A stretch of DNA of 64,000 nt from an uncultured Gammaproteobacteria bacterium (lineage in GTDB: Bacteria > Pseudomonadota > Gammaproteobacteria > Xanthomonadales > SZUA-38). The notes beneath the pieces were generated by a model that saw only the letters and a list, made by a program, of their open reading frames with translations, was not told the origin of the DNA and searched no databases. Numbering within the stretch: the stretch's first letter is position 1; each line of letters opens with the position of its first letter. Of this stretch, positions 14,446 to 24,840 are shown piece after piece. A program made the translations under genes and the position numbers. The stretch spans positions 5,209 through 69,208 of the forward strand of contig CAZLJY010000003.1 of the NCBI GenBank assembly GCA_964559945.1. The letters are read 5' to 3'.

Positions 14446-15531
14446 ATGGGAATACTGTCGCCCATGAAATCCGTGGCTATCAATGCTCTAGTTAACCCAG
14501 CAATTACCGAAAAAACGGCTGAACTCACCGAGGCATTTGCAAACACCAAACCCTTTCGCCATGTGGTAATCGATGATTTTTTCCACGCAGAGTTTTGCAC
14601 GCATCTAGTCAATGAATTCCCCCCATTTGACGACAAGTTGGCACTCAATGAAAACGGCCAGGTAGGAGCCAAAGCGGTTCACGAGAAAATACGCGGTCTG
14701 GGCAATGCCTTTGCTCAGTTGGACGCGTTAGTGGCGCAAAAGAATTTTCGTCAGTTGATCGGCGACATTACCGGCATCACCGATCTTCAGTTTGATCCCC
14801 ACTATTTTGGCGGCGGTACTCATGAAAATCGGCACGGTCAGGATCTCGACCCCCATGTGGATTTCAACTATCACCCACGCAACGGCCAACATCGACGGCT
14901 AAACCTTATTGTCTATCTAAACCCCCGCTGGGAAAAAAATTGGGGCGGATGGCTCGACCTGCACGCCGACCCCTATTTACCCGTAGGTGAAGATCGAGTG
15001 ACCCGAATACAGCCATTGATGAATCGGTGCGTGATTTTCGAAACCACGGAAAATTCCTGGCACGGTTTTGAGCGCATTACTCTGCCCAAAGATCAGCGTC
15101 ACTTGTCTCGACGATCCTTTGCGCTCTATTACTATTCGAAAAAGCGCCCAATCCAACAAACGGCGAAACCCCACTCTACTGTGTACGTGGATCGACAATT
15201 GCCAGCACACTTTTGCCCGGGCCTTACGTTAACTGACGCCAACGTCCAGGAACTGGAAATTCTCTTAAAGCGCAGAGACCAACACACCCAGAGGCTCTAT
15301 CGGAACCTACAGGATCTTTCAGCTCAGTTGTCCTCTGCCAGGGGCTATCTGGATTATGTAAAGAACCAAGAAGAGGCTGAAACTCCGGGAAATTTAGATA
15401 CGCATGTTCGGCGCCAGCTGCGACAGCTAGCGATGATGCGTCTTGAGCTGGCTGCCATGCGCGCCTCACTGTCCTGGCGCCTAACCCGGCCATTCCGGAT
15501 CCTGAAGCGCCGGCTGCTAAGGGCTAGCTGA
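14446..15531 (+). CDS. 2OG-Fe(II) oxygenase superfamily protein (prolyl-hydroxylase-like) with C-terminal coiled-coil tail
   Basis: HxD...H facial-triad candidates (LDPHVDFNYH ... NSWHGFERI) and RRSFALYYY. The last ~100 aa are helical and charged. An alternative start is ATG 14464. Confidence 0.6.
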   Translation: MGILSPMKSVAINALVNPAITEKTAELTEAFANTKPFRHVVIDDFFHAEFCTHLVNEFPPFDDKLALNENGQVGAKAVHEKIRGLGNAFAQLDALVAQKNFRQLIGDITGITDLQFDPHYFGGGTHENRHGQDLDPHVDFNYHPRNGQHRRLNLIVYLNPRWEKNWGGWLDLHADPYLPVGEDRVTRIQPLMNRCVIFETTENSWHGFERITLPKDQRHLSRRSFALYYYSKKRPIQQTAKPHSTVYVDRQLPAHFCPGLTLTDANVQELEILLKRRDQHTQRLYRNLQDLSAQLSSARGYLDYVKNQEEAETPGNLDTHVRRQLRQLAMMRLELAAMRASLSWRLTRPFRILKRRLLRAS

Positions 15532-16413
15532 GTACCACTGCTCCAACATAGACAAGGAGATACCGGCTCCGCCACAGGCAATCACCAGCGGCTTGTGAGC
15601 CTCAATCAAGCCGTCATAAACCGCACTGACAACCGCGCCACATGCAGGCTCGACTAAACGTCGGTGTTCGTCAGCAAAACGTCGGCACCCAGCCACCGCC
15701 TGGGCGTCGCTCACAAGTCGGCTGTGGATCAAATGCTCTTGGGTCCATTGCCACGCTCTATCTGCGACCTGATGAGCCCCCATGGTGAGGGCGATGGTAT
15801 TGATGGACTCCAATGCCACCGGTCCACCCGCATCCATGGCCGCCTTCAGGGAGGCTGCCCCGTAGGTTTCGACGGCAAACACCGGCACGTCGACCCAGCC
15901 AGCCCGAGCCATACCTTCGAGCACACCACACATCAAGCCACCACCACCAACGGCCAGCACCACTGCGTCAGGTTCCAGTCCGCTTGCCACGCATTCATCC
16001 ACCAAACTACTATGACCGGTCCAGATTTCCGGGTGATCAAAGGGATGAGCGTATGTGCCACCCAACTGATCGCACAGGTGCCGGGCCACTTGATCGGACT
16101 CACTCCAGTCAACGCCTTCCTGACGTACCTTGGCACCCAGGGCAGTGAGCCGCTCCAAGGTCAATTGGGGGACTGTCTCAGGCACCACCACATGGCATTT
16201 GAGGGCTAATTTTCCAGCTGCGTAAGCCACCGCTAGACCCGCATTTCCGCCGGATGAACTGACAATGGTATCGGCGCCAGCGGCTTTGGCCTGCTGCACC
16301 AACCGTGACATACCCCGAAGCTTAAACGAGCCAGTGGGCTGGTCACATTCCATTTTCAGCCACATCTCGCCCGTTTCGACAGGCTGACGTATCAGTGGAG
16401 TGTTGACGTACAT
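15517..16413 (-). CDS. PLP-dependent serine/threonine dehydratase-like enzyme (tryptophan-synthase-beta fold)
   Basis: PTGSFKLRG lysine motif and the SSSGGNAGLAVAYAA glycine loop. The ~298 aa length is typical of short catabolic serine/threonine dehydratases. Confidence 0.8.
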   Translation of the reverse strand: MYVNTPLIRQPVETGEMWLKMECDQPTGSFKLRGMSRLVQQAKAAGADTIVSSSGGNAGLAVAYAAGKLALKCHVVVPETVPQLTLERLTALGAKVRQEGVDWSESDQVARHLCDQLGGTYAHPFDHPEIWTGHSSLVDECVASGLEPDAVVLAVGGGGLMCGVLEGMARAGWVDVPVFAVETYGAASLKAAMDAGGPVALESINTIALTMGAHQVADRAWQWTQEHLIHSRLVSDAQAVAGCRRFADEHRRLVEPACGAVVSAVYDGLIEAHKPLVIACGGAGISLSMLEQWYSASP

Positions 16414-16565
16414 ACCGCCTCCTTAAGGCAAATTCGGCTAACCTATAGTGAATCACTTGTGTAAGAGAAAACCATAGACAATCAATAATGACGGCCGCAA
16501 TGGATTGTTCATCAAGTCAGAGTTGCACCAAATGCGCTTGATAAATAAACCATCGAGTGCAAATA

Positions 16566-16598
16566 GTTAGGGGGAAAAGGATCTTTTGAACGTCTGCC
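16566..16598 (+). promoter_or_regulatory. Candidate ECF-sigma-type promoter upstream of P1
   Basis: GTTAGGGGG (16566-16574), a 16-nt spacer, then CGTC (16591-16594) inside AACGTCTGCC (16589-16598). The same architecture and the identical 10-mer recur upstream of P2. Confidence 0.4.
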
Positions 16599-16608
16599 AA
16601 CAGAACTT

Positions 16609-18033
16609 ATGAGTAAACAACGACTGATCCATAGTATTGCCATCGCCGCTCTGTTGGCTTGCGCCACCGCCAATGCAGTGCGCCTAAGTCTGGACGATTC
16701 AGGTCAGGTTTTGCTGTTCCCGTTGTTTCTCACTGGCGGCAGTTTTCAGACCATTTTTGAGATTCGCAATCAATCAGATTTGGGCAAGGCTCTGCGTCTG
16801 GTGGTTAAGGACCCGGTCAACGCGCGCCCAACCCTATCATTGAACATTTACCTGGCGCCCGGGGATAGTTGGTCTAGCGCGTTATTTAGCCCCGACCCCG
16901 ATCAACCGGTTCGTACCGCAACCGCGGTTCTCGCCAAATCCGAAGATGCCAGCTGCACCTTTCCCGAGCGCAGTGCAATCCCAGACACGGGAATGACACT
17001 CAGCGAAGCGTTTTTTAGTGAAGACTTGAGTGGCATTGTATTGAGCCAGTCGCGCCGTGCGCTAGGTTTTGTTGAAGTCTATGAGATGGGTGCAATGGAG
17101 CCAGCATTGGCCACCGACTGCGAAGAAATATCCCAGCGCTTCAGTGACGGTGGCATTTGGACCACAACACCGAATCAGGACTTGCTCCCACCGGGGGGCG
17201 GTGTGGAGGGTTACGCCATTTTGGTGGATGTAGACCAGGGACGTGCCCATCAGTACGAGGCACTGGCCCTGGAAGATTTCCGCGACTCAGCCTTACATAC
17301 CCACCCCTTGACCAGCCGTCAGCCCAACCTGATGGACGTCAGTCCGGCCGAGAGTCGGGTGCTGGAAACCGTCGAATTTGGCAATCGAACGCTGCAGGTC
17401 GAACGGGTTTCCAACTGGAGCCAGACCCCGGTGCATGCCGTGGACGCGCTGCTGATGGCCACCGAGGCTCGCACCGACTATTCCGTCGCCGCCAACCTTG
17501 ACGCAACAGTGTTCACTACCCTAAATTTCCCGACCCGGGCCTATCACGCCGATGTGGAAAGGTTTTATCTCGCTCAGGGGCAAGACCGCGTATTAGCCCC
17601 ATTCCAAACCTCCTTGCCACTGGCCGCTGCGGAGAACCTTGAAGCCAACGCCATTGAGGTCACCTCAGTGGACCGAGAAGGCCGCAATTTTACCCTCCAA
17701 CCCTTTTCAGGGCGCGTTAACTGTGATCTGGCCAATAGCGCAGTCACCACCGTATTTATGAGCAACACCATCGGGTTCACTCAGCCTTGTGACTACACCG
17801 AGGGGGAGTTCCGCGTTCCCAACAACGCCATGGAGGGTGAAGTTCGATATCAGTTAAGTGGAGAAATAGTGTCGGATGAAGGTCATGTTTTTTCTGGCTT
17901 ACCCATCGCAGGCTTTGTTATACAAAGCATCCGCAACACTCAGATCGACGTTGCACCTGGGGTTCGAGGCATTGCTGATTACGGTTGGGCCCGAGCACTG
18001 AAAATTGAACGCCAGGTCACAGACCCACAATGA
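16609..18033 (+). CDS. Uncharacterised secreted protein P1 (paralog of 22767..24032)
   Basis: Signal peptide MSKQRLIHSIAIAALLACATANA. No motif that I can assign to a characterised family. Clear paralogy to P2, with four aligned cysteines. The stop overlaps the tonB-like start (ATGA at 18030-18033). Confidence 0.85.
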   Translation: MSKQRLIHSIAIAALLACATANAVRLSLDDSGQVLLFPLFLTGGSFQTIFEIRNQSDLGKALRLVVKDPVNARPTLSLNIYLAPGDSWSSALFSPDPDQPVRTATAVLAKSEDASCTFPERSAIPDTGMTLSEAFFSEDLSGIVLSQSRRALGFVEVYEMGAMEPALATDCEEISQRFSDGGIWTTTPNQDLLPPGGGVEGYAILVDVDQGRAHQYEALALEDFRDSALHTHPLTSRQPNLMDVSPAESRVLETVEFGNRTLQVERVSNWSQTPVHAVDALLMATEARTDYSVAANLDATVFTTLNFPTRAYHADVERFYLAQGQDRVLAPFQTSLPLAAAENLEANAIEVTSVDREGRNFTLQPFSGRVNCDLANSAVTTVFMSNTIGFTQPCDYTEGEFRVPNNAMEGEVRYQLSGEIVSDEGHVFSGLPIAGFVIQSIRNTQIDVAPGVRGIADYGWARALKIERQVTDPQ

Positions 18034-18764
18034 AACAAACCCGTGGCAGACTGATCGCATGTATCGCCGCCTCCATCGTTGTGCAGCTGTTGTTGCTGGC
18101 TTGGTTGGCCCGGCCGGTTTCCTTGCCGCTGTCTTTACCGACGTTGGAAGTACTGCTGGTCAGTCCGCGGGATCTCGATAACCTGTCTGCGGCGAGTTTA
18201 CCGGCTCAAACTCAAGCTACCCAAGCGCCAACACCTTCTCAATCCGGCGATGCGCAAAGCAAGCCACCGCCCGCGCCACTTTCGGACCCACTGGCCGCCA
18301 AATCTGATCGTCAGCCAGTGCCGAACATCCCGCAATCTGGCACTGGAATCACTGCCAGCTCTATCGCTAGCGTGTTGCCGATTGATTTTACTCAAAGCCT
18401 TTCGCCGCCGCAGCCAGCTGGACAAAACCCGGCTAACTCAGTGGACTTCAGAAATCCTGACCCGCACAACGCCGGGGTGGAGCTCGCCATTCGCCAGCGC
18501 CTCGCCCAGTTTCAATCCTATCCTCCCAGCGCCCGCCGCCGGGGGATTGAAGGTGACGTCACAGTGAGATTCGTCATTGGTCAACGAGGCAAAGTGATGG
18601 ACAGTGAACTGATTAAGTCTTCCGGCTCTCGTCATTTGGATCAGGCCGCCCTTAGACTGGTGGCCGATGCGGCACCCTATCCGTCATTACCTGCCAGTAT
18701 TTCCGCCTCCAGACTAGAGGTCAAAATACCCATCGAGTACCGATTGCAGCCTCCAGCCATATAG
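18030..18764 (+). CDS. TonB family energy-transducer paralog
   Basis: N-terminal TM anchor, a Pro/Gln/Ser-rich spacer, and a C-terminal TonB domain (YPPSARRRGIEGDVTVRFVIGQRGKVMDSELIKSSGSRHLDQAALRLV...YP). Confidence 0.85.
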   Translation: MKQTRGRLIACIAASIVVQLLLLAWLARPVSLPLSLPTLEVLLVSPRDLDNLSAASLPAQTQATQAPTPSQSGDAQSKPPPAPLSDPLAAKSDRQPVPNIPQSGTGITASSIASVLPIDFTQSLSPPQPAGQNPANSVDFRNPDPHNAGVELAIRQRLAQFQSYPPSARRRGIEGDVTVRFVIGQRGKVMDSELIKSSGSRHLDQAALRLVADAAPYPSLPASISASRLEVKIPIEYRLQPPAI

Positions 18765-18786
18765 ATTTGGACGCCCTTTTCGCACC

Positions 18787-19290
18787 ATGAATTTGGCCAA
18801 CGCTGCCAACGCCGTTGAGACCCATCGCACTGAGCTCACCGCTTTCGCCGCGGCAATGGTGGGGACTCACCGGGCCGAAGACGTTGTTCAGGACGCCTGT
18901 TTTCGACTGGCCCGGGCATTGGAGCGGCAGCCCGCTGACAAACCCATAGAGAATGTGCGGGCCTATTTGTTTCGCATTACTGCCAACTTGGCGCGAGACC
19001 TGCTACGCCGTGATAAACGCTCAGACCGACATCTAAAAACCTTGGTTGAAGACGATAACAGCCCGGCTGCGGGCGAGGTTGCGGCCCTGGATGAGCAATT
19101 GGTTTTGCTTCGGGAGGCCATTGCCCAACTGCCAACCAAGTGCCGTCGGGCGTTCGTCGCGCGCAAGTATGAGGGACTTTCATACAAGGAAATCTCCGCC
19201 CGCGAGGGAATTACCGAGAAAACCGTCGAAAACCATATTGGGCGCGCACTAAAACTCCTGCGCGAGTCCATGGCCAGGCTAGAACAGTAG
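18787..19290 (+). CDS. ECF (sigma-70 family, FecI-like) RNA polymerase sigma factor
   Basis: Region 2 (VQDACFRL...YLFRITANLARDLLRR) and region 4 (LPTKCRRAFVARKYEGLSYKEISAREGITEKTVENHIGRAL). Length 167 aa. Confidence 0.9.
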   Translation: MNLANAANAVETHRTELTAFAAAMVGTHRAEDVVQDACFRLARALERQPADKPIENVRAYLFRITANLARDLLRRDKRSDRHLKTLVEDDNSPAAGEVAALDEQLVLLREAIAQLPTKCRRAFVARKYEGLSYKEISAREGITEKTVENHIGRALKLLRESMARLEQ

Positions 19291-19324
19291 GCTAGAACAG
19301 TAGGCTAGAACAGTAGGCTAGAAC
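19276..19324. repeat. Perfect 13-bp tandem repeat (AGGCTAGAACAGT x3 plus a 10-nt partial copy)
   Basis: Read directly. Units lie at 19276-19288, 19289-19301 and 19302-19314, with a partial copy at 19315-19324. The sigma-factor stop codon TAG (19288-19290) spans the junction between unit 1 and unit 2. Confidence 0.95.
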
Positions 19325-19357
19325 GGAAGTGTATGAGCCAAGCAAATATTCATTTTT

Positions 19358-19379
19358 CAACGGGTCAGCAGACCCGTTG
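19358..19379 (+). other. Intercistronic stem-loop between the sigma and anti-sigma genes
   Basis: CAACGGGTC-AGCA-GACCCGTTG: a 9-bp perfect stem and a 4-nt loop. No U-tract follows, so it is not a canonical intrinsic terminator. Confidence 0.6.
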
Positions 19380-19400
19380 TCGACCACAACGGACCAGGGC

Positions 19401-19429
19401 GTTGGGGGAATAGGGGTGATTGGAGCGTT
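19401..19429 (+). promoter_or_regulatory. Candidate ECF-sigma-type promoter-like motif upstream of fecR
   Basis: GTTGGGGG (19401-19408), a 17-nt spacer, then CGTT (19426-19429). It resembles the motifs before P1 and P2 but lies only a few nt from ATG 19433, which would imply a near-leaderless transcript. Confidence 0.25.
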
Positions 19430-19432
19430 GCT

Positions 19433-20374
19433 ATGAATACGACACAGGACAATACGACGCCAATGGAACAGGCCGCACAGTGGATGAGCCGTTTGGGAGC
19501 AACAGAAACGCCCGACTGGAACGACCCGGAATTTGCCGTTTGGCTGGATCAATCGACCCGGCATCGGGAAGCGTTTGCCGAAGTCAGCGCCCTGTGGTTT
19601 GCGGCCGAACAAATTGCGCCGGGCGACGATCTAAAGCCCCCTTCCCTGGATCACCAATGGAACCCTTTGGCAACTTCCAATCGGCGAACCTCCCGTTGGC
19701 GCATCGGTGCTGGCTTTGCGGTGGCCTTGACGGCCCTAATGTTACTACCCAATGTGCTGCAGCGCTGGACGGCGTCGCAATCAGAGTTCCTCACCCAACG
19801 AGGCGAAACCGCAAACATCACACTGGCTGACGGCTCAACGATTCAAATGGCTGGTCTCAGTGCGTTCAGTTCTTTGAGCGACGGGCGCGGCATTGAACTG
19901 CACTACGGCGAAGTTTTCCTGCAGGTTACCCATGACCCGCAAGATCCATTTGTGGTCTCTGCTGGAGATAATGAAGTCACGGTGCTGGGCACCCAGTTTG
20001 GTGTTGCATGGCGGGACGGCGAGCACCGCGCTGGCGTGGTTAGCGGTCGGGTTTCCGTGTCCTCAGGAACGGGGCCTTTAATTCAGCTGGGGCCCGGCGA
20101 GCTTGCCGTCAACGGCACCCAGAGCCGGCAGCCGGGCCAGGATTTTTTCGCCTGGCGCTCGGGCAATCTGGTGTTTACCGAGACACCACTGAGCCAAGTG
20201 ATCGATCAATTGGCCCCTTTCCTCTCTCAGCGAATTATCCGGGTACCCGGCGCTAAGGACCCCATGGTTAGCGCTGTGGTTAATCTTCGTGTTGGCGACC
20301 AAATGCTTGAAACCCTGGCCCAAAGTACGGGTATGCAGATACTGACCGCCGGGCCGGTTACACTGCTGTACTGA
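19433..20374 (+). CDS. FecR-like transmembrane anti-sigma factor / sensor
   Basis: N-terminal anti-sigma segment (AAQWMSRL...FAVWLDQSTRHREAFAEV), a single TM (IGAGFAVALTALMLL), and a periplasmic FecR domain (GEVFLQVTHDPQDPFVVSAGDNEVTVLGTQFGV). SD GGAG lies 8 nt upstream. Confidence 0.88.
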   Translation: MNTTQDNTTPMEQAAQWMSRLGATETPDWNDPEFAVWLDQSTRHREAFAEVSALWFAAEQIAPGDDLKPPSLDHQWNPLATSNRRTSRWRIGAGFAVALTALMLLPNVLQRWTASQSEFLTQRGETANITLADGSTIQMAGLSAFSSLSDGRGIELHYGEVFLQVTHDPQDPFVVSAGDNEVTVLGTQFGVAWRDGEHRAGVVSGRVSVSSGTGPLIQLGPGELAVNGTQSRQPGQDFFAWRSGNLVFTETPLSQVIDQLAPFLSQRIIRVPGAKDPMVSAVVNLRVGDQMLETLAQSTGMQILTAGPVTLLY

Positions 20375-22704
20375 TGAATGCAAAAACCCGCCGATGCGGG
20401 CTGCTGGCCCTGTTCATGGCTGGAACGCTGGTGGCTCTATCTAGTCAGGCGCAAACCCTGGAGGAGGCGCTGCGCCGCATTAGCGAACAGCAGAGCTGGA
20501 ATTACCTGCTGGGACCTGGGGTCGATCTATCCCTGCCTGTTAGTACGGATATTTTGACCGAGGCCGCGCTTGAGCAGTTCCTGCAACGATCGGCCATTAC
20601 CATCCATGTTTTGCCAACAGGCGATCGACAACTGCGCCGAGACAACCTGGCACAAGTCAGCTTGGACGCATTGCCTGTGACAGCAGCCTCATTGGCTGGA
20701 GGCGGGCCGCCACTGCGTAACGGTGTCAGCGGCACCCAGATCAGCGCGCAGGATATGGAAAATTTAAACGACACCCAGCTCGATCAACTATTCACCCGAG
20801 CTGCTAACGTTTTTGGCAGCGGTGATGAGTACTATGTTCGCGGAGTGGCCAGTGGCGGCGACCTCAATACCCTGGGCAACGCCGCGGCCGTTGTGGGTAA
20901 AGCGCCTCTGCCCAATGCCGTACTGGGAAATCTACCCTTAAGCACCTGGGATGTGGCGAGTGCCGGATTTGAGCGAGGCACCCGCAGCGCCAGCGAGGCT
21001 GGACCGTTTAGCAGTTTTGCCGGGCGCATCAGCATCCGACCCAAGGCACCGGGGTTTGCCAATGAGCATCGGTTCCGGTTAGGCCTAACCGAGCTGGGTG
21101 ATTCGCAAATTTCACTGTTGGCCAATACGGTCTTCATCGATGAAGAACTGGCAATGCGGGTTAGCGTAGATCGCCAATCCCTTGCCGGCACACTCACCGA
21201 CCCGGGCACATCCCGTTCCACGGGACTCGGGGAGGATTTTGATTTTCGCCGAAGCACCACCGCACGTGCCGCGCTATCGTGGGAACCTGCGGCCCTGCCC
21301 GCGCTGCGTGTCTCCTTGGACCTCATTGGCATTGACGGCAGTGCCGGACCCCAGCGAATAACGGCAACCAACCCCTTTGATCGGGTTGGTCGAGGACCGC
21401 CATTTTTACAGCAAGATGTCAGCGGCGAGTTGGCGACCTTAAGTGGCATCGTTGAAAGCACCAACATGGGAAATTTCAGCATCGACGTGGTGGCCTCTCG
21501 AGGTACCGCAGAGCTGGTACCCAGCCGGGTTCTAGCCAATGATCTAGACCCAGCCGACCCCTTAGTGGACGAAGAACGCGACCGCCTCCTATTCAGTCAC
21601 CTTAATTGGACTAAGACTTGGAATCACTCGACTCTCGGCATTGGTCTGAGCGCAGGACAGAATTCGCACCAGGATGGCTATTTGCGCGAGCAGCGAGACT
21701 GGCGGTTACGCAGCCGCCTACGTCGCAACACCCTCGCCTTAACTCTAGATACTGCGTTAACGAAAGCTTGGCGGTTGCAGGCTGGATTGCGCTACACCAA
21801 AGATCAATTGCGGCGCAGTTGCAGTAGCACGGCGCTGGGATCGCCTTCTTCTCAGCCCAGTGACTGTTTGCAAGTTCTAGGGCTACTACTGATTCCATTG
21901 GATGGACAATTTGAACGGTTCAGTCAACGTTATGACAACCTCAGCCCCGAACTAGCGCTGGCCTATAAGCCCTCCGCCAACAGCGAGTATTACCTGCGCT
22001 TGGCCGAAGGGTTTAACAGCGGCGGCGCTGTTTCCGACGCCACCTTTGATGGCTTACCCCAATGGATTTTCTATGAGCCAGAACGCTCTCGCGGCGCTGA
22101 GCTTGGCTGGCGCGGGCAACTTGGGAGTTTAACCGTCAACGCAACCGCATTTCACACGCAGTTAGATCAACAATGGCAGGTGATACAAGGCAATGTGGGG
22201 CTAGGAGACATCATTAACGTTGGTAATTCTAAAAGCCGTGGCCTGGAATTGGATGGGCGTTGGCAATTGTCTCCAGACCACCAGCTAGCGTTTAGCTTGG
22301 GCTGGCTCAATACGCGATTCGAAAACTTTCTGCCCTTCGAAGCCGATGCCCGGCTTGAACCTGCTGGCGGCAATCAGTTTCCCGGTGCACCGGATTTTTC
22401 CGGTTCACTGAACTGGCGCTCTAGCCTAGGGGCTGGCTGGCAAATCGGTGCTGGATTGACCTTTCACGACGCTGTACAGGCCAACGCTAACAATCCGGAT
22501 TCAGCCGAAATCCCCGCCGTTGCCTTGGCTGACTTGCGAGTCGCTTGGCAGCGCGGATCGATCACCGTGGCGTTGACGGCGCGCAACCTGTTTGACCGCG
22601 ATTATCAACAAACCACGCCCAACGTCATTCGTCGCAACCAACGCATTGATTATTTGCCTGGGCGTCCACGCAATATCGGTCTGACCCTTCAGTATGATTT
22701 TTAA
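20374..22704 (+). CDS. TonB-dependent transducer (TonB-dependent receptor with N-terminal STN signalling domain)
   Basis: Signal peptide ...LSSQAQ and an STN-like N-terminal extension (LEEALRRISEQQSWNYLL...). The body is beta-barrel-like and the terminus (RPRNIGLTLQYDF) ends in the aromatic residue typical of TBDRs. The start overlaps the fecR stop (TGATG). Confidence 0.8.
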   Translation: MNAKTRRCGLLALFMAGTLVALSSQAQTLEEALRRISEQQSWNYLLGPGVDLSLPVSTDILTEAALEQFLQRSAITIHVLPTGDRQLRRDNLAQVSLDALPVTAASLAGGGPPLRNGVSGTQISAQDMENLNDTQLDQLFTRAANVFGSGDEYYVRGVASGGDLNTLGNAAAVVGKAPLPNAVLGNLPLSTWDVASAGFERGTRSASEAGPFSSFAGRISIRPKAPGFANEHRFRLGLTELGDSQISLLANTVFIDEELAMRVSVDRQSLAGTLTDPGTSRSTGLGEDFDFRRSTTARAALSWEPAALPALRVSLDLIGIDGSAGPQRITATNPFDRVGRGPPFLQQDVSGELATLSGIVESTNMGNFSIDVVASRGTAELVPSRVLANDLDPADPLVDEERDRLLFSHLNWTKTWNHSTLGIGLSAGQNSHQDGYLREQRDWRLRSRLRRNTLALTLDTALTKAWRLQAGLRYTKDQLRRSCSSTALGSPSSQPSDCLQVLGLLLIPLDGQFERFSQRYDNLSPELALAYKPSANSEYYLRLAEGFNSGGAVSDATFDGLPQWIFYEPERSRGAELGWRGQLGSLTVNATAFHTQLDQQWQVIQGNVGLGDIINVGNSKSRGLELDGRWQLSPDHQLAFSLGWLNTRFENFLPFEADARLEPAGGNQFPGAPDFSGSLNWRSSLGAGWQIGAGLTFHDAVQANANNPDSAEIPAVALADLRVAWQRGSITVALTARNLFDRDYQQTTPNVIRRNQRIDYLPGRPRNIGLTLQYDF

Positions 22705-22707
22705 ATC

Positions 22708-22741
22708 GTTTGGGGGGCAGCGTTGTTGGCAAACGTCTGCC
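22708..22741 (+). promoter_or_regulatory. Candidate ECF-sigma-type promoter upstream of P2
   Basis: GTTTGGGGGG (22708-22717), 16 nt counted from the last five Gs, then CGTC (22734-22737) inside AACGTCTGCC (22732-22741). That 10-mer is identical to the one upstream of P1. Confidence 0.4.
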
Positions 22742-22766
22742 CGACATAGAACAACGGAGTTTAACC

Positions 22767-24032
22767 ATGAAGATTCGCTTTTTGATGATAGCCCTAATAT
22801 TGAGCTTGCCGGTTTGCACTGTGCAAGCAGTCAGCTTAGATACCAGCGGCCGCAACGCCCAGGTGCTGATATTTCCGGTGTTCACAACCCAAGGCGCCTT
22901 TGAGACCGATTTCACCATTCGAAATAACACCGACCAAGGTAAAGCACTGAGGGTCGTTACCAAAGACGCATTGGCCGGCCGCCCCACCATCAGCGTCAAT
23001 GTATACCTAAAACCCGGTGATGCCTGGAACGCGCGATTAATCGGACAGCCTGCATTCTCAGCAACGCTGGTCAGCAATGACGAAAGTTGCAGCGTACCGC
23101 GCCTCGCCTCACCGCGGGCAACCGCCGCGCAGTTAGACGCTAACCTGGATGGCGGACGTTTGCCTCGCTCCCAGCTCGTTACCGGTTATATCGAGGTGTT
23201 CGAAATGGGAGAAATCAGTCCGGAGTTGGCTGCTGACTGCGATGAGATTGATAGTCGGTTCGCCGATGGCGTGTGGTCAACTGGCGAGGTGTTGGTCAAC
23301 GACGGGGTCAGTGCTCCTGGAGGCGGCTTGTCTGGCATCTCCTATGTTCGTGACACTGCTCGCGGCAACACATTGGCGTTTCGGCCGACCGGGCTTGCCG
23401 ATTTCAGTAACGTGCCCAATCACACGGTCCGCCAACGGGCAGGCCGGCCTTCCCTGGGTAACGTTGCACCGGCGCAAGCAGAGATTGATGGACAGACCTT
23501 TGGTTTTTCCTCCAGCCCAATCAATGCCGTTGAAGCGGTTTTGATGACTCAGCAGCTATCCGCTGAGTACCATAGCCAAGAGGGCACACAGGCCTTTGCC
23601 ACGGCGATGGTCCTGCTGCCTACTCGGCCCTTTCATGCCAACCCGGGCTTTTATCGACCCTTCAACGCATCACCGTTTGACCCAGCTAACAATCAGGTTG
23701 TTGGCAACATTGTTGACAACAAAGGAGATCGGTTGAACAACTTATCTACGCCTGCGGCAGGCGAGTTGTGTGACCGCTACACTGGCGCGCTAAATTTTGT
23801 GTCGTTGATCAATTTTCTGGCGTTTAGCGCCATTTGCGATTTCGGTGAAGCCCAGCTGTTTTTGTTCAATGACGATTTTCGCGGTGTCGTGGAACTGCCA
23901 CTGACTGGCAGCGTAACGGCCGATGACGGCACATCATTCAATGGTCTTCCCGCGGTTGGTCATCTGTTGCAAACCACCCTCAATAACACCGATGAATTGG
24001 GTGTATATGCCATACCCATGAGACGGCAGTAA
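22767..24032 (+). CDS. Uncharacterised secreted protein P2 (paralog of 16609..18033)
   Basis: ATG 22767 has GGAG 8-11 nt upstream; the caller's 22710 start is a 5' extension. Signal peptide MKIRFLMIALILSLPVCTVQA. Alignable to P1 along its whole length. Confidence 0.85.
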   Translation: MKIRFLMIALILSLPVCTVQAVSLDTSGRNAQVLIFPVFTTQGAFETDFTIRNNTDQGKALRVVTKDALAGRPTISVNVYLKPGDAWNARLIGQPAFSATLVSNDESCSVPRLASPRATAAQLDANLDGGRLPRSQLVTGYIEVFEMGEISPELAADCDEIDSRFADGVWSTGEVLVNDGVSAPGGGLSGISYVRDTARGNTLAFRPTGLADFSNVPNHTVRQRAGRPSLGNVAPAQAEIDGQTFGFSSSPINAVEAVLMTQQLSAEYHSQEGTQAFATAMVLLPTRPFHANPGFYRPFNASPFDPANNQVVGNIVDNKGDRLNNLSTPAAGELCDRYTGALNFVSLINFLAFSAICDFGEAQLFLFNDDFRGVVELPLTGSVTADDGTSFNGLPAVGHLLQTTLNNTDELGVYAIPMRRQ

Positions 24033-24059: not shown

Positions 24060-24088
24060 GCGGCCCCATTTCTGGGGCCGCTTTTTTT
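24060..24088 (+). terminator. Rho-independent terminator ending the P1...P2 operon
   Basis: GCGGCCCCA-TTTC-TGGGGCCGC followed by TTTTTTT. Confidence 0.85.
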
Positions 24089-24135: not shown

Positions 24136-24840
24136 TTACCGGCGCTCGTCCCATGAGCAGGCAACAACCACCAGCACGTAAACGCATTTCACTTCCAAAC
24201 CAAAACTCGTGACAAACCCAAATTCCGGGGTGATTTTGTCGAAACCCCGCTCTAACTTCCCACGAAAACCTGCTGAATAGAACCGAAGACCCATTTCACC
24301 AGGTTCAAAAGGCAGTTGTGGCAGCGGTCGATCGAGGGTTGTGAGCATGTTCGTTTGGTCGGCAAGCCCCAGTAGCATTGGTGGTATCTGGGGTTCAGGA
24401 GCGATATCAAGCTGGGACTGTCCATCCAGGCGGTATCGCGCCATTTGATTGAGCAAGTCATCTGCCGTCGGCCCAGCAACCTCCTCTGCGACTGGCTGCA
24501 CCGAGGGCTCTGGCATGTCCCGAGTTTCAATGGGGTCTGATTTTGGTGTATCAGGGGTAACGGGTATTTCTTCAGGCTCGGCTGGCGCGAGCTGTTCCCG
24601 CTCCAGCAGCGGTGCAGGTTCTGGACGTGCTATCGGCTCGGGAGGGGCGATTACAGGGGATATCAACTCCACCTCCAAGGCGGGTTGACGCACAGGCGCA
24701 GGCAACGGCTGGAGGCTCAACCACCACAGCACAGCGCAATGCACCAATGTAGCGATAACGAGCCAAACCGGTGCCGATAACCGCGGCCACTTTACCGCCG
24801 GCCACTGTGGACCATCCACAGCAACAACCAGAGTACCCAT
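24136..24840 (-). CDS. Membrane-anchored proline-rich protein (TonB-N-terminus-like, no recognisable TonB C-terminal domain)
   Basis: TM helix (VWLVIATLVHCAVLWWLSL), then PxP/EP-rich spacers (PPEPIARPEPAPLLEREQLAPAEPEEIPVTP). The C-terminal ~90 aa are unlike TonB_C. It lies directly downstream of ppc on the same strand. Confidence 0.55.
   Translation of the reverse strand: MGTLVVAVDGPQWPAVKWPRLSAPVWLVIATLVHCAVLWWLSLQPLPAPVRQPALEVELISPVIAPPEPIARPEPAPLLEREQLAPAEPEEIPVTPDTPKSDPIETRDMPEPSVQPVAEEVAGPTADDLLNQMARYRLDGQSQLDIAPEPQIPPMLLGLADQTNMLTTLDRPLPQLPFEPGEMGLRFYSAGFRGKLERGFDKITPEFGFVTSFGLEVKCVYVLVVVACSWDERR

Follow-up and report, generated by a model that had tools for sequence, protein, structure and literature searches.

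Organization of the locus

We analysed a 64-kb stretch of DNA from an uncultured gammaproteobacterium (contig CAZLJY010000003.1; the whole stretch is hereafter called the window), with a focus on two predicted exported proteins, named P1 and P2, whose genes stand at the two ends of a six-gene locus. All six genes lie on the + strand between positions 16609 and 24032 and encode, in order, P1, a TonB paralogue, an ECF (extracytoplasmic function) sigma factor, a FecR-type anti-sigma factor, a divergent TonB-dependent receptor and P2 (Table 1). The start of tonB overlaps the stop codon of P1 by 4 nt, and this overlap is kept in the related loci L001 and L003. The locus consists of these genes only and contains no type I secretion genes. 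Pfam searches revealed no periplasmic binding protein or ABC importer at the locus, profiles built for this analysis detected no type II secretion or O-antigen genes in the window, and an Rfam scan of the window returned no RNA family.

P1 and P2 are diverged paralogues

The sequence-only reading of this DNA had proposed that P1 and P2 are diverged paralogues with a conserved N-terminal block. Using BLASTP with P1 (16609–18030) as the query against P2 (22767–24029), 152 of 443 positions were found to be identical (34%, with 51% positives and an E-value of 2e-71). The alignment covers residues 7–443 of P1 and residues 3–406 of P2, which is nearly the full length of both proteins, showing that the similarity reaches well beyond signal and low-complexity regions, and all of the shared motifs named in the earlier reading were found in it. 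When identity was counted in blocks of 40 residues, the values were 43% for residues 1–40, 55% for residues 41–80 and 42% for residues 161–200, and 12–32% for the other blocks. The N-terminal block is thus the best conserved part (43–55% over residues 1–80), as had been proposed. P2 is a trimmed paralogue: compared with P1, the C-terminal tail, a hairpin of 12 residues and a segment of 15 residues are missing. Mature P1 has 451 amino acids (49.2 kDa, pI 4.5) and mature P2 has 400 (42.6 kDa, pI 4.7).

The longest open reading frame (ORF) of P2 opens at a TTG codon (22710). The ATG codon at 22767 is the likely start, because it is preceded by the ribosome-binding site AACGGAG and the orthologues start there. 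In a rough neighbour-joining tree of the proteins from related genomes, those encoded at the P1 position and those encoded at the P2 position formed separate sister clades. Thus the duplication is older than the divergence of these genomes, and the suggestion that both copies have been retained was borne out.

Cysteine residues and signal peptides

The signal peptide of P1 comprises residues 1–23 (cleaved at …ANA↓VRLSLD) and that of P2 residues 1–21 (…VQA↓VSLD). Mature P1 contains exactly four cysteine residues (Cys116, Cys171, Cys372 and Cys394), and so does mature P2 (Cys108, Cys158, Cys335 and Cys357). Each cysteine of P2 aligns with its counterpart in P1, in agreement with the pairwise match described before. 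The conservation of the cysteine residues and of the cleavage site was then counted in an alignment of 133 diverse homologues. Cys116 was present in 133/133 and Cys171 in 132/133 homologues, Cys372 was present in 81%, and Cys394 was confined to the P1/P2 clade (12/133). In most other members (71/133), a cysteine residue near P1 position 346 co-occurs with the third cysteine. An even number of mature cysteine residues was found in 131 of the 133 homologues. The four cysteine residues thus align in P1 and P2, but two disulfide bonds throughout the family are not supported, as family-wide only Cys116 and Cys171 are constant and the partner of Cys372 depends on the clade. This pattern would correspond to one putative disulfide bond throughout the family and a second one with a movable partner.

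The A-x-A↓V cleavage motif is kept across the alignment, with Ala23 in 124/133 and Val24 in 112/133 homologues, which fits cleavage by signal peptidase I. Taken together, the aligned cysteine residues, their even counts and the conserved signal peptidase I site fit P1 and P2 being extracytoplasmic, disulfide-bonded proteins, and the location proposed from the sequence alone is in agreement with these data. We also considered whether LLAC of P1 and LPVC of P2 could be lipoboxes, as the earlier reading had allowed. The putative lipobox cysteine residues (Cys18 of P1 and Cys17 of P2) vary among orthologues: Cys18 is missing in several P1 orthologues, including P0007, P0008 and P0010, and LPVC of P2 has a valine residue at position −1. 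The lipoprotein reading was therefore rejected, as the lipobox cysteine is unconserved and the A-x-A↓V motif is conserved instead.

Conservation of the locus in related genomes

The order P1–tonB–sigma–fecR–receptor is kept in every related genome found (L001, L003–L008 and L010; L002 and L009 are the same locus as L001). P2 follows the receptor gene in the window, L001 and L004–L007; it is frameshifted in L003 and gone from the locus in L008 and L010. A P2-like gene lies at another place in the genomes of L008 (as L011) and of L010 (as L022). A gene for a PF09826 beta-propeller protein lies directly after the receptor gene in L008 and L010 and after P2 in L001 and L003; this gene is absent from the window.

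The flanking genes were also compared. The gene for a 234-residue protein, which has a membrane anchor, an N-terminal half that is rich in proline and resembles TonB/TolA, and no Pfam match, sits between P2 and the phosphoenolpyruvate carboxylase gene in the window. It is a neighbour of the locus in L001 and L004–L008 too, even with other genes inserted between. Upstream of P1 lie a gene for a 2-oxoglutarate-Fe(II) oxygenase and one for a pyridoxal phosphate (PLP)-dependent dehydratase-like protein. The PLP gene is a kept neighbour in L004–L008 and the oxygenase gene in L007; L001 has a UbiA gene at this place instead.

A promoter-like motif and three predicted transcription units

Aligning the otherwise diverged intergenic DNA upstream of P1 in the relatives exposed a bipartite element, with the consensus TTTGGGGGaAa-N13-gCGTCtgcc over 20 sites in ten loci. 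Its strict form, GGGGNA-N14-CGTC, had only two matches on both strands of the 64-kb window, where 0.39 were expected. The two matches stand before P1 (GGGGAAAAGGATCTTTTGAACGTC) and before P2 (GGGGCAGCGTTGTTGGCAAACGTC) and have AACGTCTGCC in common. ECF promoters generally combine a G-rich −35 element with a CGTC −10 element, and the motif is probably recognised by the sigma factor encoded at the locus itself.

The motif was found upstream of P1 in every operon-bearing locus (L001, L003–L008 and L010), before P2 in L004, L005, L007 and, as a variant, L006, and in canonical form before fecR in L001, L003 and L010. L008 and L010 also have it immediately ahead of the beta-propeller gene, and in the same two genomes it precedes the unlinked P2-like genes as well (L011 and L022). 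The motif was not present at the seven standalone distant family members examined. In the window, a variant of the motif (GGGGAATAGGGGTGATTGGAGCGTT) precedes fecR by only 3 nt, counted to the annotated ATG; the true start of fecR may be the methionine at residue 11, or this copy of the motif may have decayed.

The sequence-only reading had taken the six genes as one operon. This part of it is not supported: from the motifs before P1 and P2, the variant before fecR and the hairpin that follows the sigma factor gene, the locus looks like three co-regulated units, namely P1–tonB–sigma, which would be self-activating, fecR–receptor, and P2. The features of the locus are listed in Table 1.

Table 1 Features of the locus and of the loci compared with it (window coordinates unless another record is given)
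Feature	Record	Position	Strand	Details
2-Oxoglutarate-Fe(II) oxygenase gene and PLP-dependent dehydratase-like gene	Window	14446–16413	+ (oxygenase), − (PLP)	Upstream of P1
Sigma-70-like match	Window	16538–16567		TTGATA-18-AATAGT, 9/12
ECF-type promoter-like motif, P1	Window	16571–16594	+	Strict match; ends 14 nt before the P1 start codon
P1	Window	16609–18033	+	474 amino acids; ORF, BLASTP, AlphaFold2 model
TonB paralogue	Window	18030–18764	+	244 amino acids; Pfam TonB_C 4.9e-18
ECF sigma factor	Window	18787–19290	+	167 amino acids; Pfam Sigma70_r2 1.5e-12, Sigma70_r4_2 1.2e-17, Sigma70_ECF 3.8e-5
13-bp tandem repeat	Window	19276–19324		3.8 copies, 100% matches
Hairpin between the sigma factor gene and fecR	Window	19358–19379	+	9-bp stem, no T-run; read from sequence
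Motif variant before fecR	Window	19405–19429	+	Spacer one base longer; CGTT end, not CGTC
FecR-type anti-sigma factor	Window	19433–20374	+	313 amino acids; Pfam FecR 9.1e-17, DUF4880 6.2e-6
TonB-dependent receptor, divergent	Window	20374–22704	+	776 amino acids; Pfam barrel 8.9e-31
ECF-type promoter-like motif, P2	Window	22714–22737	+	Strict match; ends 29 nt before the P2 start codon
P2	Window	22767–24032	+	421 amino acids; start ATG 22767
Intrinsic terminator 3′ of P2	Window	24060–24088	+	9-bp GC-rich stem, then T7
234-residue protein	Window	24136–24840	−	Membrane anchor; no Pfam match
PF09826 beta-propeller protein	L001	17490–20207		905 amino acids; LVIVD repeat
PF09826 beta-propeller protein	L003	11531–14272		
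PF09826 beta-propeller protein	L008	~15957–18608		
PF09826 beta-propeller protein	L010	7532–8269		
Two adjacent DUF285-fused proteins	L023	91–5229 and 5344–10287		~1,650–1,700 amino acids each
Type II cluster with family member	L105, Comamonas odontotermitis plasmid NZ_CP083452.1	301249–326661		rfbC, gspE–M, gspC-like, gspD, small hypothetical, 'cell surface protein' family member, PpiC, ABC-2 exporter, methyltransferase and glycosyltransferase genes

Other sequence signals were noted in the same regions. A sigma-70-like match, which could give basal expression, lies just upstream of the ECF-type motif of P1; such matches are no commoner in the region than chance. The intergenic region that P1 shares with the oxygenase and PLP genes contains a conserved GCTGACGTATACTGA element. 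The 13-bp tandem repeat AGGCTAGAACAGT starts in the final codons of the sigma factor gene and reiterates the sequence around its stop codon.

We further searched for signs of metal regulation. The best Fur box candidate upstream of P1 scored 10/19, which is the mode of random 200-nt windows, and the orthologous loci were likewise not above background; no Zur box above background was found upstream of P1 in the window or the orthologous loci. Regulation by iron or zinc was rejected on these grounds, and the promoter sequences thus give no sign that either metal is the ligand of the receptor.

The TonB-dependent receptor

The barrel of the receptor was clearly recognised by Pfam, and the match to the Plug domain was weak (E 0.02). 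The protein matched TIGR01783 at 2e-38, yet under the curated cut-off, and its best matches in the PDB were FyuA, YncD and PqqU (E-values of 2e-6 to 3e-5). On these profile matches, the receptor is a true but diverged TonB-dependent receptor. Its N-terminus has a signal peptide, then an extension of ~70 residues and then a TonB-box-like DALPVTA at residues 98–104, an arrangement that is, as judged from the sequence, the layout of a signalling receptor. A signalling (STN) domain was not detected in the extension by Pfam at E≤10 or by a PDB profile search. The orthologous receptor in L001 had no precomputed Pfam hit at all.

P1 and P2 belong to a large family without annotation

An exhaustive profile search recovered 3,244 representative clusters (50% identity) at E≤1e-3, and 1,099 at E≤1e-30. 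A word-indexed homologue search gave just 15 and 6 hits, every one of them in a metagenome-assembled genome assigned to Lysobacterales, Xanthomonadales or Pseudomonadota, and its repeat with a broad alignment added none. The pattern scan of genome contigs used a clade-specific pattern and so retrieved close relatives only. Pfam held no family for P1, P2, 19 close or aligned relatives and 10 distant relatives, and NCBIfam held none at E≤1 for P1, P2 and the relatives examined. Searches of the PDB with phmmer and with a profile (E≤10) yielded nothing but one chance hit, to ferritin. No description of the family turned up in searches of the literature, and the source annotations read 'hypothetical protein' throughout the members examined, except for one 'cell surface protein'.

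The AlphaFold2 model of P1 (pLDDT 86, pTM 0.87) is mostly beta-strand. Foldseek gave no match at E≤1e-3 for this model against the PDB and BFVD, or for the model of a two-module member (see below) against the PDB. Below the threshold, there was a resemblance to galectin/concanavalin, laminin-G and neprosin jelly rolls, with a probability of ≤0.66. Only Cys116, Pro308 and Pro432 are strictly invariant in the family. Several polar residues are conserved at ~25% identity (Asp86, Asp113, Ser115, Arg149, Glu156, Glu159, Thr309 and Arg356), with Glu156 and Glu159 belonging to an EVxEMG motif.

Genomic contexts of the wider family

A scan of metagenomes yielded 80 further loci, in which ORFs were called and genes were assigned with profiles built in this analysis, examples being checked against Pfam. 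A complete type II secretion cluster was the dominant context, being found in 32 of the 59 informative metagenome loci (54%, a figure that describes the main clade, which the scan pattern …YPYYT favours). The cluster has the order GspH/I/J pseudopilins, GspK, GspL, GspM, a lipoprotein secretin, a lipoprotein of ~150 residues, the family member, a secreted protein of ~300–400 residues and a PpiC-type isomerase. The ~150-residue lipoprotein had been the sole partner common to the neighbourhoods of five distant members and was later traced to this cluster. Other members of the family are standalone genes.

The type II cluster of L016, of L018 and of a plasmid from Comamonas odontotermitis runs on into genes for an ABC-2 (Wzm/Wzt-type) exporter and for sulfo-, methyl- and glycosyltransferases, with rfbC upstream. 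The family member on the Comamonas plasmid is the one annotated as a 'cell surface protein', and it matched the P1/P2 alignment over the N-terminal ~190 columns with an hhalign probability of 98.6%. The two adjacent proteins of L023 each consist of DUF285 (BspA-type leucine-rich) repeats and then two tandem family modules. From the type II context, the 'cell surface protein' annotation and the DUF285 fusions, the family elsewhere appears to be one of exported proteins of the surface or the extracellular space. A gene for a TonB-dependent receptor, TonB or FecR adjoins distant members in L024, L027, L064 and L068, and these neighbourhoods point to an association with receptor and TonB genes that arose in more than one lineage.

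Family modules occur in pairs

Natural fusions of two complete modules (~950 residues) make up approximately 20 of the top 150 representatives. The N- and C-terminal halves of the fusions formed two sister clades apart from P1 and P2 in a neighbour-joining tree, and therefore stem from an independent duplication. The model of one fusion (954 residues) had a pTM of 0.80 and a pLDDT of 77, which indirectly suggests that the two modules are held in a defined arrangement, and not as beads on a string. In 11 metagenome loci, family genes lie side by side in twos or threes, and most of these genes are full-length. That the modules have repeatedly been duplicated, placed next to each other and fused is in keeping with pairwise function. 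The idea of a heteromer, raised in the earlier reading, thus gains circumstantial support from the fusions, the fusion model and the tandem pairs, and contact between P1 and P2 themselves is suggested by analogy.

Comparison with known systems

The Has operon encodes a secreted hemophore and a dedicated TonB paralogue, and its anti-sigma gene has a sigma-dependent promoter (PMC9249621). As in the Has systems of Serratia marcescens and Pseudomonas (hasI-hasS-hasR-hasA-hasDE-hasB), the present locus brings together an ECF sigma factor, an anti-sigma factor, a receptor of putative transducer type, a TonB paralogue and a predicted secreted accessory protein. In Has, transcription from promoters within the locus, one of them ahead of the anti-sigma gene, depends on the sigma factor (PMC9249621), and the motif described above suggests a similar arrangement here. 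However, HasA is small and is exported by a type I system encoded in the operon (HasDE), whereas P1 and P2 have N-terminal Sec signals, are proteins of 43–49 kDa and are predicted to be mostly beta-strand, and neither sequence nor Foldseek comparison gave a significant match to HasA or to any solved structure. The present locus also differs from Has in that it encodes two paralogues, in that type I secretion genes are missing and no Fur box rises above background, and in that the sigma factor gene itself appears to lie behind a sigma-type promoter.

The FecI/FecR/FecA systems (ECF239–243) share with the locus the ECF sigma factor, a FecR protein with DUF4880 and a receptor in which an extension is followed by a TonB-box-like motif. 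The FecI-like ECF clade is associated with TonB-dependent receptors (PMC7826278). In contrast with Fec, the gene order here opens with an accessory protein and a TonB paralogue, the receptor has the marginal Plug match and no match to the signalling domain, and the search for an iron-regulation box found none. The predicted regulon also includes two exported paralogues, plus the beta-propeller protein in relatives.

With respect to gene layout, it is the wider family, and not the locus in the window, that resembles the S-layer loci of Aeromonas (vapA/ahsA, Sps type II). In both, the gene for a protein of ~500 residues with a Sec signal, a surface protein in Aeromonas, ends a dedicated type II cluster beside wzm/wzt and sulfo-/methyltransferase genes; the A-layer locus of Aeromonas salmonicida comprises wzm, spsE–L, vapA, wzt and a sulfotransferase gene (PMC4483657). 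The locus in the window, unlike these, has no secretion or O-antigen genes and links P1 and P2 to the regulon of a receptor. A further likeness is to bilobed TbpB and to SusE/SusF, which are duplicated, beta-rich surface lipoproteins that act as partners of TonB-dependent receptors. In all of these, beta-rich accessory proteins, duplicated internally or as paralogues, accompany a TonB-dependent receptor. However, TbpB, SusE and SusF are lipoproteins, whereas P1 and P2 have a signal peptidase I site, and no relationship in sequence or fold was detected.

Proposed role of P1 and P2

The locus is of a known kind, a TonB-dependent cell-surface-signalling module, with a new accessory pair from an unannotated family. 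We favour, with a probability of roughly 0.45, the reading that P1 and P2 are an exported, disulfide-bonded surface or extracellular pair that handles the ligand of the receptor in this uptake module. A duplicated pair from a family whose members elsewhere would mostly leave the cell through a type II system of their own would have been recruited into a module of ECF sigma factor, FecR, transducer-type receptor and TonB. Ligand sensed at the receptor would lead to release of the sigma factor, which would raise transcription of P1–tonB–sigma in a positive feedback and also that of fecR–receptor and of P2. Once exported, P1 and P2 would work together as a pair, probably touching each other, at the cell surface or beyond it, and would trap the ligand, present it to the receptor or process it, as HasA serves HasR. 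The analysis shows the paralogy, the family membership, the conserved signal peptidase I site and cysteine pattern, the gene set and the motif with its conservation; dependence of the motif on the sigma factor, export past the outer membrane, contact between P1 and P2 and the ligand-handling role are what we infer.

Several observations weigh against this assignment. The window has no type II secretion genes, so that export past the outer membrane is deduced from relatives, and the translational coupling of P1 and TonB could mean a periplasmic role. Contact between P1 and P2 is drawn from the analogy with the fusions and from a single pTM value. P2 is dispensable from the locus: L008 and L010 lack it there, and the copy in L003 has a frameshift. 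The motif near fecR in the window is degenerate and too near the annotated start, and homology of the N-terminal extension of the receptor to a signalling domain went undetected in the searches made. Finally, the conserved polar residues would suit an enzyme as well as a binder.

The last point leads to the view, which we consider unlikely, that P1 and P2 are secreted enzymes, e.g. degrading a glycan or another polymer, and release a product that is imported and sensed by the receptor, as in the carbohydrate-utilisation loci with TonB-dependent receptors. Acidic and polar residues are indeed kept at ~25% identity, the family is tied to type II secretion, a typical exporter of hydrolases, and the weak Foldseek likeness is to concanavalin/galectin jelly rolls and neprosin; a metal system is also not required, given the lack of Fur and Zur boxes. 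However, there was no match, even a weak one, to an enzyme family in Pfam, NCBIfam or the PDB, every Foldseek hit was below significance, and the three strictly invariant residues are structural ones. In the P1 model, moreover, Glu156 and Glu159 are three residues apart on one strand and would thus point to opposite faces. A periplasmic role, in which P1, perhaps with P2, would be an accessory of TonB or the receptor that receives the ligand or modulates FecR signalling, would fit the conserved overlap of the P1 stop codon with the tonB start. It would also agree with the Sec signal peptides of both proteins, with the lack of secretion genes in the locus and the window, and with the vacant place of a binding protein and ABC importer at the locus. 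We hold it to be distinctly improbable, as the family is mostly found at the cargo position of type II clusters, with some members fused to surface leucine-rich repeats, many members are encoded far from TonB systems, and a binding role rarely needs two paralogues or tandem fusions.

P1 and P2 might also be structural coat proteins of the S-layer kind that are under control of the sigma factor incidentally and do not handle the ligand of the receptor. The main loci of the family mirror the A-layer locus of Aeromonas (L016, L018 and L105), one member is annotated as a 'cell surface protein', the mature proteins are acidic and of ~43–49 kDa, and a conserved N-terminal block with a variable remainder is what anchoring and lattice domains would look like. 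We nevertheless regard this explanation as very unlikely, because every genome examined in this clade has the genes inside the receptor/TonB/sigma module and under shared regulation with it, and there is no obvious rationale for a coat protein under a ligand-induced sigma factor and coupled to TonB; the window also has no secretion or O-antigen genes. The favoured role as a ligand-handling pair can be extended into a more far-reaching proposal, which is doubtful at present. P1 and P2 would then be exported receptor partners of a new type, distinct from the lipoproteins and with a fold so far missing among solved structures, and would derive from a type-II-secreted surface (possibly S-layer-like) family. 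The N-terminal block would anchor them at the cell surface, and the diverged remainder would form a heterodimeric ligand trap that feeds the receptor and co-induces signalling, having evolved independently of HasA and of the lipoprotein partners and been recruited by several lineages.

Implications

If the favoured reading is true, it would give a function and a test system to a family of >3,000 clusters that has no annotation, domain model or structure, and would enlarge by a new type the set of accessory proteins that serve TonB-dependent uptake and signalling at the cell surface. The motif defines a regulon that can be tested, consisting of P1, fecR with the receptor gene, P2 and, in relatives, the beta-propeller protein. 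The occurrence of the family in S-layer-like type II/O-antigen loci would, moreover, open a route to study surface-coat proteins that are re-used for nutrient capture.

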